A DNA stretch of 64,000 nt from Escherichia coli (lineage in GTDB: Bacteria > Pseudomonadota > Gammaproteobacteria > Enterobacterales > Enterobacteriaceae): the NCBI RefSeq assembly GCF_024223415.1, contig NZ_CP100500.1; one strand, written 5' to 3'. Under the pieces are notes generated by a model. The model saw nothing but the letters and a program-made list of their open reading frames with translations. It had not been told where the DNA came from and searched no databases. Positions 11,090 to 59,262 of the stretch are shown in pieces. A program made the translations under genes and the position numbers. Each line of letters opens with the position of its first letter. Within the stretch, counting starts at the first letter, position 1.

Positions 11090-12208
11090 ATGCATAACCA
11101 GGCTCCAATTCAACGTAGAAAATCAACACGTATTTACGTTGGGAATGTGCCGATTGGCGATGGTGCTCCCATCGCCGTACAGTCCATGACCAATACGCGT
11201 ACGACAGATGTCGAAGCAACGGTCAATCAAATCAAGGCGCTGGAACGCGTTGGCGCTGATATCGTCCGTGTCTCCGTACCGACGATGGACGCGGCAGAAG
11301 CGTTCAAACTCATCAAACAGCAGGTTAACGTGCCGCTGGTGGCTGACATCCACTTCGACTATCGCATTGCGCTGAAAGTAGCGGAATACGGCGTCGATTG
11401 TCTGCGTATTAACCCTGGCAATATCGGTAATGAAGAGCGTATTCGCATGGTGGTTGACTGTGCGCGCGATAAAAACATTCCGATCCGTATTGGCGTTAAC
11501 GCCGGATCGCTGGAAAAAGATCTGCAAGAAAAGTATGGCGAACCGACGCCGCAGGCGTTGCTGGAATCCGCCATGCGCCATGTTGATCATCTCGATCGCC
11601 TGAACTTCGATCAGTTCAAAGTCAGCGTGAAAGCGTCTGACGTCTTCCTCGCTGTTGAGTCTTATCGTTTGCTGGCAAAACAAATCGATCAGCCGCTGCA
11701 TCTGGGGATCACCGAAGCGGGTGGCGCGCGCAGCGGGGCAGTAAAATCCGCCATTGGTTTAGGTCTGCTGCTGTCTGAAGGCATCGGCGACACGCTGCGC
11801 GTATCACTGGCGGCCGATCCGGTCGAAGAGATCAAAGTCGGTTTCGATATTTTGAAATCGCTGCGTATCCGTTCGCGAGGGATCAACTTCATCGCCTGCC
11901 CGACCTGTTCGCGTCAGGAATTTGATGTTATCGGTACGGTTAACGCGCTGGAGCAACGCCTGGAAGATATCATCACTCCGATGGACGTTTCGATTATCGG
12001 CTGCGTGGTGAATGGCCCAGGTGAGGCGCTGGTTTCTACACTCGGCGTCACCGGCGGCAACAAGAAAAGCGGCCTCTATGAAGATGGCGTGCGCAAAGAC
12101 CGTCTGGACAACAACGATATGATCGACCAGCTGGAAGCACGCATTCGTGCGAAAGCCAGTCAGCTGGACGAAGCGCGTCGAATTGACGTTCAGCAGGTTG
12201 AAAAATAA
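11090..12208 (+). CDS. ispG: 4-hydroxy-3-methylbut-2-enyl diphosphate synthase
   Basis: 372-aa ORF recognised as IspG (GcpE). Confidence 0.95.
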
Positions 12209-12318
12209 TAACGTGATGGGAAGCGCCTCGCTTCCCGTGTATGATTGAACCCGCATAGCTCCCGAAACATTGAGGGAAGCGTTGAGGGTTCATTTTTATA
12301 TTCAGAAAGAGAATAAAC

Positions 12319-56758: not shown

Positions 56759-57472
56759 ATGCAAAAGCAAGCTGAGTTGTATCGTGGTAAAGCGAAAACC
56801 GTATACAGCACGGAAAACCCGGACCTGTTGGTGCTCGAATTCCGCAATGATACGTCAGCAGGGGATGGCGCGCGCATTGAGCAGTTTGATCGCAAAGGTA
56901 TGGTGAACAACAAGTTCAACTACTTCATTATGAGCAAACTGGCTGAAGCGGGTATCCCGACTCAAATGGAGCGTCTGCTCTCCGATACCGAATGTCTGGT
57001 GAAAAAGCTGGATATGGTACCGGTTGAGTGTGTCGTGCGTAACCGTGCTGCTGGCTCTCTGGTGAAACGTCTTGGAATCGAAGAAGGTATTGAGCTGAAC
57101 CCGCCGCTGTTCGATCTGTTCCTGAAAAACGACGCCATGCACGATCCGATGGTCAACGAATCTTACTGCGAAACCTTTGGCTGGGTAAGCAAAGAGAACC
57201 TGGCACGCATGAAAGAGCTGACCTACAAAGCGAACGACGTGCTGAAAAAACTGTTCGATGATGCTGGTCTGATTCTGGTCGACTTCAAGCTGGAGTTTGG
57301 TCTGTACAAAGGCGAAGTGGTACTGGGTGATGAGTTCTCCCCGGACGGTAGCCGCCTGTGGGACAAAGAAACGCTGGAGAAAATGGACAAAGACCGTTTC
57401 CGCCAGAGCCTCGGTGGCCTGATCGAGGCCTATGAAGCCGTCGCCCGCCGCCTGGGTGTACAGCTGGACTGA
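56759..57472 (+). CDS. purC: SAICAR synthetase
   Basis: 237-aa product from [16 protein letters not shown]. Confidence 0.95.
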
Positions 57473-57494
57473 TTTTTCTGGTTGCTTGTTTATT

Positions 57495-57516
57495 TAGCCG
57501 GAGGGTACTCCGGCTA
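57495..57516 (+). terminator. Hairpin downstream of purC (weak terminator candidate)
   Basis: Perfect 9-bp stem tagccggag / ctccggcta with a 4-nt loop; no clear U-tract follows. Confidence 0.35.
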
Positions 57517-57587
57517 AATGTCTTCGATACCCCCGCTACAATACTTCGCATTATCTCCCTTTGACAGGAAAGTAATAACAGGCCAAT

Positions 57588-57599
57588 ATGTATATACAT
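57588..57599 (+). promoter_or_regulatory. Perfect 12-bp palindrome ATGTATATACAT in the vapBC promoter region (putative VapB operator)
   Basis: Palindrome lies between a TTGACA hexamer (57561-57566) and the vapB Shine-Dalgarno/ATG. Confidence 0.4.
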
Positions 57600-57626
57600 G
57601 ACGTATATCCCAAAAAAGGGGGGGCT

Positions 57627-57854
57627 ATGGAAACTACTGTATTTTTAAGTAATCGCAGTCAGGCCGTCAGATTACCGAAAGCGGTCGCTCTGCCAGAGGA
57701 TGTTAAGAAAGTAGAAATTATTGCGATTGGTCGTACAAGAATCATCACTCCCGCCGGTGAGTCCTGGGACAGTTGGTTTGATGGCGAAAATGTGAGTGCG
57801 GATTTTATGGATATCCGTGATCAACCCGCAATGCAGGAAAGGGAATCATTCTGA
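57627..57854 (+). CDS. vapB: VapB antitoxin (AbrB/SpoVT-type DNA-binding fold)
   Basis: 75-aa product from METTVFLSNRSQAVRLPKAV with a strong GGGGG Shine-Dalgarno; stop overlaps the vapC start (TGATG). Confidence 0.8.
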   Translation: METTVFLSNRSQAVRLPKAVALPEDVKKVEIIAIGRTRIITPAGESWDSWFDGENVSADFMDIRDQPAMQERESF

Positions 57855-58252
57855 TGCTGAAATTCATGCTGGATACCAATATCTGTATTTTCACTATTAA
57901 GAATAAACCAGTACATGTCAGAGAGCGGTTTAACCTGAATTCTGGCCGGATGTGTATAAGTTCTGTAACATTGATGGAGCTTATCTATGGGGCAGAAAAA
58001 AGTCAGATGCCAGAACGCAATTTGGCGGTGATTGAAGGTTTCGTATCTCGTTTGGAAGTGCTTGATTATGATAGTGCTGCTGCGACGCATACTGGGCAAA
58101 TCAGGGCCGAGCTTGCCCGGCAGGGAAGGCCTGTTGGACCTTTTGACCAGATGATAGCGGGACATGCTCGCAGTCGCGGTTTGATTGTGGTTACCAACAA
58201 TACCCGAGAGTTTGAGCGAGTGGCGGGAATCAGACTAGAAGATTGGAGCTAA
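57854..58252 (+). CDS. vapC: VapC PIN-domain ribonuclease toxin
   Basis: 132-aa ORF starting MLKFMLDTNICIF with conserved acidic PIN residues; closely resembles the enteric VapC/MvpT family as I recall it. Confidence 0.85.
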   Translation: MLKFMLDTNICIFTIKNKPVHVRERFNLNSGRMCISSVTLMELIYGAEKSQMPERNLAVIEGFVSRLEVLDYDSAAATHTGQIRAELARQGRPVGPFDQMIAGHARSRGLIVVTNNTREFERVAGIRLEDWS

Positions 58253-58398
58253 CATTCTCTTTTACTTCTAACATTCGTAAATTATATAACGTGGCATGAA
58301 GCCTTAATTCCTCCGCCATTTCATCCCGTTTTCCTGTGGTAATCTTCCTCTGAACCACCTACGATCATTTCTATAATGAATATATTGTTGAGGTATCT

Positions 58399-59262
58399 AT
58401 GCGTTGGCAAGGGCGACGTGAAAGTGACAATGTTGAAGACAGGCGCAATAGCTCCGGCGGTCCGTCAATGGGCGGTCCCGGTTTCCGTCTGCCGAGCGGT
58501 AAAGGCGGGCTGATTTTACTGATAGTCGTGCTGGTTGCAGGCTACTATGGCGTTGATTTAACCGGGTTGATGACCGGGCAGCCGGTTTCTCAACAGCAAT
58601 CAACGCGGTCAATTAGCCCAAATGAAGACGAAGCCGCAAAATTCACCTCGGTGATTCTGGCAACCACGGAAGACACCTGGGGACAACAGTTCGAGAAGAT
58701 GGGTAAGACCTATCAGCAACCGAAGCTGGTCATGTACCGTGGAATGACGCGTACCGGATGCGGGGCGGGCCAGTCCATAATGGGGCCGTTCTATTGCCCG
58801 GCGGATGGCACGGTTTATATCGATCTCTCCTTCTATGATGACATGAAAGACAAACTTGGCGCGGATGGCGATTTTGCCCAAGGGTACGTTATCGCCCATG
58901 AAGTCGGTCATCATGTGCAGAAACTGTTAGGCATCGAGCCGAAAGTTCGTCAACTGCAACAAAACGCGACGCAGGCGGAAGTGAACCGCTTATCTGTGCG
59001 TATGGAACTCCAGGCCGACTGTTTTGCCGGTGTCTGGGGGCATAGTATGCAGCAGCAAGGCGTTCTGGAAACCGGCGATCTGGAAGAGGCGCTGAACGCT
59101 GCGCAGGCCATCGGCGATGACCGTTTACAACAGCAAAGTCAGGGGCGAGTAGTACCAGACAGTTTCACTCATGGCACTTCTCAGCAACGCTACAGCTGGT
59201 TTAAACGTGGTTTCGACAGCGGCGATCCGGCACAATGCAATACTTTTGGTAAAAGCATTTAA
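58399..59262 (+). CDS. ypfJ: Predicted zinc metalloprotease-family membrane protein YpfJ
   Basis: 287-aa ORF with HEVGHH motif and an N-terminal hydrophobic segment. Confidence 0.9.

Follow-up and report, generated by a model that had tools for sequence, protein, structure and literature searches.

The stretch of DNA analysed here (the window) comprises 64,000 nucleotides of the Escherichia coli contig NZ_CP100500.1. In the spacer between its purC and ypfJ genes (57473-58398), the listing of open reading frames has two same-strand frames, the first for an antitoxin, VapB, and the second for a toxin, VapC (see the table). The stop codon TGA of vapB and the start codon ATG of vapC have one base in common, forming TGATG at 57852-57856, exactly as the first-pass annotation, made from the letters alone, had read them. 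We take vapB to start at the Met at 57627, which is the start in both PGAP and crystallised VapB proteins. Gene callers in some public assemblies use an alternative frame of 88 amino acids (57588-57854) that begins at ATG 57588; as this codon lies within the inferred -10 and operator, the longer reading is probably an over-extension. Elsewhere in the window, the sroE small RNA (12208-12299, plus strand, 114.6 bits) is the sole match at the Rfam gathering threshold.

Features of the purC–ypfJ interval and its flanking genes, with positions counted from the first letter of the window
Feature	Position	Strand	Evidence
purC (SAICAR synthase), 5' flank	56759..57472	+	TIGR00081, 290 bits; annotated purC in a 100% identical genome
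Segment without K-12 counterpart, 826 nt, carrying vapBC	57481..58306	+	Pairwise alignments; composition profile
Hairpin with perfect 12-bp stem, directly 3' of the purC stop	57492..57519	+	Inverted-repeat search; RNA fold
Putative vapBC promoter	57561..57589	+	-35 TTGACA (57561-57566), 17-nt spacer, -10 CAATAT (57584-57589); inferred by position
Inverted repeat ATATAC-N5-GTATAT, candidate VapB operator (vapO1 equivalent)	57592..57608	+	Inverted-repeat search
vapB, antitoxin, 75 aa	57627..57854	+	NF040493; PF04014; identity to S. sonnei VapB; RefSeq WP_000450524.1
vapC, toxin, 132 aa, PIN-domain endonuclease, tRNA(fMet)-specific enteric subfamily	57854..58252	+	NF010285; PIN; RefSeq WP_000911329.1
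ypfJ (zinc metallopeptidase), 3' flank	58399..59262	+	NF050010, 380 bits

Profile searches assign both proteins well above the family cut-offs. VapC matches the NCBIfam model NF010285, 'tRNA(fMet)-specific endonuclease VapC', along its entire length (residues 1-132 of 132) with 291.3 bits (E=7e-88; cut-off 143 bits), and VapB scores 113.8 bits against NF040493 (E=3e-33; cut-off 60 bits). Pfam places a PIN domain (PF01850) at residues 5-125 of VapC (1.9e-21) and a MazE_antitoxin domain (PF04014), which is of the SpoVT/AbrB class, at residues 6-48 of VapB (5.5e-05). Thus, the first-pass description of the two proteins as an AbrB-type antitoxin and a PIN-domain toxin, of 75 and 132 amino acids, holds. 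VapB combines the SpoVT/AbrB-type N-terminal DNA-binding domain with a C-terminal toxin-binding tail and is encoded directly 5' of vapC. Neither protein matched any family of the anti-phage defence models in PADLOC-DB v2 at E<=0.01.

The first-pass annotation had also proposed a high similarity of this VapC to the Shigella and Salmonella toxins. We find that VapC is 92.5% identical (computed) to the VapC of the S. sonnei pINV plasmid and ~91.7% identical (counted by hand on the alignment) to that of S. flexneri (3TND). In the PDB, the S. sonnei (6SD6) and S. flexneri (3TND) structures each match at 268 bits with no gaps, and the Salmonella LT2 structure 6IFC, which ranks seventh in both PDB searches, matches residues 1-131 at 245 bits (E 1e-72); for Salmonella LT2 we express likeness as bit scores. 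VapB aligns without gaps over its full length to S. sonnei VapB, with 85.5% identity that includes the C-terminal MQERESF, and matches the Salmonella LT2 antitoxin at 110 bits. The four acidic residues of the active site have been defined in Shigella VapC (PMC8923223), and an ungapped alignment to 3TND and 6SD6 shows all four (D7, E42, D98 and E119) in identical positions in the window's VapC. Low identity and loss of the conserved PIN acids had been named as findings that would count against the assignment; identity is instead ~92%, with the acids present. At residue 32 of VapC (R) and residue 58 of VapB (A), the window's proteins agree with those of S. sonnei (PMC8923223).

The closest named systems share this organization and differ mainly in where they reside. 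VapBC of Shigella pINV, also known as MvpAT (pMYSH6000, 3TND; S. sonnei 53G, 6SD6), has the same gene order, the same protein lengths of 75 and 132 amino acids, overlapping genes, the same D7/E42/D98/E119 active site, and the -35 hexamer and ATATAC motif in common with the window copy. However, it lies on a plasmid next to traD, whereas the window copy occupies the purC–ypfJ site of the chromosome; the two are only ~74-75% identical in DNA, GC3 is lower in the window copy, the half-sites on the -35 side differ, and the plasmid-stabilisation role of the pINV system is inapplicable to a chromosomal copy. The vapBC genes of IncF and other conjugative plasmids of E. coli, E. albertii and E. marmotae (for example CP057768.1) likewise have the operon structure and PGAP name of the window copy, with VapC 90% and VapB 85.5% identical, but they sit within tra regions and their DNA is 76-78% identical. 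VapBC of Salmonella enterica LT2 (STM3033/STM3034; 6IFC/6IFM) is, like the window copy, a chromosomal enteric vapBC. It occupies a different chromosomal site, purC adjoining ypfJ in the Salmonella genome that we examined, and its proteins are more distant than those of Shigella (245 versus 268 bits for VapC).

The putative vapBC promoter was assigned by aligning the region upstream of vapB with the upstream regions of plasmid vapBC. This alignment shows the -35 hexamer TTGACA (57561-57566) unchanged upstream of vapBC in S. sonnei pINV and E. coli IncF plasmids, and the ATATAC and (G/C)ATATC motifs are kept in the plasmid promoters. The candidate operator at 57592-57608 adjoins the -10, and on this side it is conserved with the plasmid homologues. 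A consensus scan for promoters and terminators did not call a vapBC promoter, because the -10, CAATAT, matches at three of six positions; its sole call was a poor stem at the end of purC. Salmonella VapB binds to a pair of inverted repeats, vapO1 over the -10 and vapO2 over the -35 (PMC3378870). VapC strengthens this binding and disrupts it when in excess, with one operator being sufficient (PMC3378870). The -35-side operator half-sites of plasmid vapBC (CATATCC) are not conserved in the aligned chromosomal upstream region, which suggests that regulation may differ in detail from that of plasmid vapBC.

As the first-pass annotation had stated, purC and ypfJ are neighbours in K-12, where the spacer is 167 nt; the module, whose presence there would have counted against the first-pass reading, is absent. 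Aligned to K-12, the window loses homology at 57480 and regains it at 58307, so that 826 nt stand in place of ~66 unrelated nt with a different hairpin; the 92 nt 5' of ypfJ (58307-58398) are common to both. The composition profile gives a GC content of ~44-48% for the cassette, versus 52-55% for the flanks. In the Salmonella and Enterobacter genomes examined, purC also adjoins ypfJ, the spacer being 130 and 120 nt long, respectively. Because the site is empty in both of these relatives, the empty gene order is ancestral, and from these comparisons we infer that the module is an Escherichia-specific acquisition at purC–ypfJ, gained within the genus.

The first-pass annotation had called the module 'inserted'. 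The direction of change agrees with this wording, as the site is empty in Salmonella and Enterobacter, but a clean insertion does not: 826 nt replace ~66 nt, and neither junction, both of which were examined, shows a target-site duplication, terminal inverted repeat, IS, integrase or tRNA. tRNA genes were found nowhere in the 64-kb window. The spacer hairpins also point away from a simple insertion. The left arm of the hairpin at 57492-57519, CCGGAGGG, is common to the hairpin of the Salmonella spacer, which reads CCGGAGGG-CAACCGCT-CTCCGG; the loop and right arm of the Salmonella hairpin (CAACCGCTCTCGG) are common to the K-12 spacer. As each E. coli allele matches a different half of the Salmonella hairpin, both probably derive from one ancestral spacer, by an event other than a clean cut-and-paste.

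The folded RNA of 57470-57535 has a free energy of -24.9 kcal/mol (z = -4.5), and the hairpin at 57492-57519, in which a U-tract is lacking, is either a 3' hairpin of purC or a weak terminator. A stable hairpin follows purC in all three spacers (window, K-12 and Salmonella), its position being kept while its sequence differs, and a clear U-tract is missing from all three. At the other end of the module, the 9-nt sequence CTAACATTC occurs twice as a direct repeat, 19 nt apart (58249-58276), from the vapC stop codon onward; it is the sole local repeat and is probably due to chance.

We then considered how the chromosomal genes relate to their plasmid counterparts. Against true plasmid vapBC (Shigella pINV, IncF and other conjugative plasmids), DNA identity is 74-78%, and homology is limited to 57584-58252 of the window (from 57552 for Pantoea plasmids), that is, to the promoter and the two genes. 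Synonymous sites are saturated (pS 0.75-0.89), while the proteins are 85-92% identical. GC3 is 0.41-0.45 in the chromosomal genes versus 0.53-0.59 on plasmids. On these figures, codon usage appears to have diverged directionally from plasmid vapBC, with the protein remaining 85-92% identical. The low DNA identity and saturated synonymous sites argue that the chromosomal module forms a lineage of its own that separated long ago, and against recent integration from a plasmid. Against pINV specifically, pS is 0.86-0.89, above the random expectation of 0.75.

The module occupies the same purC–ypfJ site in L003 and L004, two divergent Escherichia genomes that bear the label E. coli. Between the window and these genomes, dN/dS of vapB and vapC is 0-0.07, and by this measure chromosomal vapBC is evidently under strong purifying selection. 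Over the same comparison, dS is 0.37-0.52 for bamC and ypfJ versus 0.08-0.17 for purC, vapB and vapC. The low dS of purC-vapBC relative to its flanks suggests that this tract crossed lineage boundaries later than the surrounding genome. Thus, the tract 56759-58252 looks introgressed, homologous recombination in the conserved flanks being the simplest route. The contig profile scan omits Salmonella LT2, which we would expect to have a close VapC, and the absence of other Escherichia species from that scan thus carries no weight.

Comparison of the purC–ypfJ interval across E. coli, one of the checks proposed at first pass, shows a polymorphic site. It is occupied in 1614-1616 of the 5426 complete E. 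coli genomes (~30%), chromosomal every time, and falls into two haplotype bands, one of at least 99% identity (469 records) and one of ~98.3% (1148 records). Carriers include O111, O121:H19 and O78:H4 strains and the record CP003297.1, which we take to be O104:H4; K-12, C600, B, O157:H7 and UTI89 are non-carriers, and in K-12, B, O157:H7 and UTI89 purC directly adjoins ypfJ. In the three E. coli records that we inspected, the VapB accession is WP_000450524.1 throughout, and that of VapC is WP_000911329.1 in two, with O111 RM9322 having a near-identical variant (WP_000911330.1). In the assembly collection, 26,658 indexed blocks contain this exact VapC protein, and every such block inspected has the context dapA-bamC-purC-vapB-vapC-ypfJ-tmcA. 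PGAP already names the chromosomal pair vapB/vapC. The module is therefore already known, being catalogued by RefSeq in well over a thousand E. coli genomes, and our literature search found no paper on the chromosomal E. coli copy. As a presence/absence polymorphism at a fixed site of the core genome, it is useful as a lineage marker; its VapBC family is among the best characterised, and the module has little significance beyond bookkeeping.

Collectively, these observations make it very likely that the locus is a type II toxin-antitoxin operon of the enteric MvpAT/VapBC family, located on the chromosome and transcribed autonomously. The activities of this family are known from its plasmid and Salmonella members: the structure of S. 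sonnei pINV VapBC and its cleavage of tRNA(fMet) have been published (PMC8923223), and the tRNA(fMet) tRNase activity, the Lon-labile AbrB-type VapB and conditional cooperativity at vapO1/vapO2 were established on Salmonella LT2 VapBC, where VapB is degraded by Lon (PMC3378870). Cleavage of tRNA(fMet) by the window's VapC is predicted from its ~92% identity to the characterised proteins (PMC3378870, PMC8923223), and neutralisation by VapB, autoregulation and Lon sensitivity would, by analogy with the homologues, most likely extend to the chromosomal copy.

In the model that we propose, VapC would be a PIN endonuclease requiring Mg2+ that cleaves the anticodon stem-loop of initiator tRNA(fMet), such that translation initiation stops. 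The C-terminal tail of VapB would bind VapC and block its active site, and the AbrB-type N-terminal domain would dimerise and bind an inverted-repeat operator that overlaps the promoter, the VapBC complex repressing its own operon with conditional cooperativity. VapB being Lon-labile, a block in its synthesis would release VapC. The module would have been acquired anciently between purC and ypfJ in Escherichia, is kept by purifying selection, and would move among lineages via homologous recombination of its flanks.

As related vapBC genes are found on plasmids, the chromosomal copy could instead act on those plasmids. Chromosomal VapB might neutralise the VapC of an incoming IncF or pINV plasmid, or the operator and proteins of the two copies might cross-regulate, in either case blunting post-segregational killing. 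Identity to the plasmid proteins is 85.5% for VapB, with the MQERESF tail in common, and 90-92% for VapC, an operator motif is common to chromosomal and plasmid vapBC, and the two kinds of copy are often found in the same genome. In the passage of PMC7232551 that cites Saavedra De Bast 2008, this anti-addiction concept is established for ccd only. A sensitive search returned 2048 genomes with either vapBC type, with 1616 chromosomal-type and 777 plasmid-type records (the latter being the 60-80% DNA identity class), and with up to four vapBC places per genome. These marginal totals imply roughly 200-345 genomes with both types, versus the ~190-230 expected if the two were independent; allowing for several plasmid copies per genome and for phylogeny, co-occurrence is neither depleted nor clearly enriched. 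Moreover, synonymous sites are saturated, and a few interface changes can insulate cognate pairs. We therefore consider an anti-addiction or cross-talk module unlikely, and equally doubt that vapBC is kept in ~30% of E. coli because VapB or VapBC cross-reacts with the 85-92% identical VapBC of IncF/pINV plasmids. If it were so, carrier lineages would escape post-segregational killing on losing or exchanging virulence and resistance plasmids of the IncF/pINV type, or the regulation of plasmid vapBC would be altered in them. Given the frequent co-residence with plasmid vapBC encoding near-identical proteins, cross-talk could affect plasmid-stability experiments in such hosts.

A second reading is that the operon is a decayed or inactive relic, with a non-toxic VapC or a VapB that persists as an orphan antitoxin-like regulator. 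Chromosomal toxin-antitoxin modules often decay, the -10 of the promoter is weak, and a related VapC from the pAA plasmid, which has an active-site change, is non-toxic despite high similarity (PMC11950199). The pAA case shows that similarity alone is no guarantee of toxicity, but the active site of the window's VapC is intact. With both reading frames at full length, all four catalytic acids in place, dN/dS at 0.03-0.07, and VapB identical and VapC identical or near-identical in the three records inspected, we regard decay as very unlikely. Strong constraint despite the ancient divergence from plasmid copies argues that activity has probably been kept, and hence the chromosomal operon is, as judged from its sequence, probably functional.

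That the locus is instead a plasmid remnant, a piece of a pINV/IncF plasmid with vapBC that entered the chromosome recently, is hardly credible: vapBC relatives abound on the conjugative plasmids of Escherichia, Shigella and Salmonella (1283 PLSDB records) and the GC content of the cassette is below that of its flanks, but the DNA identity of 74-78%, saturated pS and different GC3, the end of plasmid homology at the promoter and two genes, and the absence of plasmid, IS or tra sequence adjoining vapBC all speak against it.

Three near-identical matches filed as plasmids in PLSDB were rejected as genuine plasmid copies on account of chromosomal lengths or a chromosomal gene block. NZ_OL790696.1 (4.8 Mb) and CP061244.1 (1.4 Mb) have chromosomal lengths, and NZ_CP019906.1 (29 kb) has the block dapA-bamC-purC-vapBC-ypfJ-tmcA beside an ISVsa5 transposase. 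All three records are probably mislabelled or misassembled.
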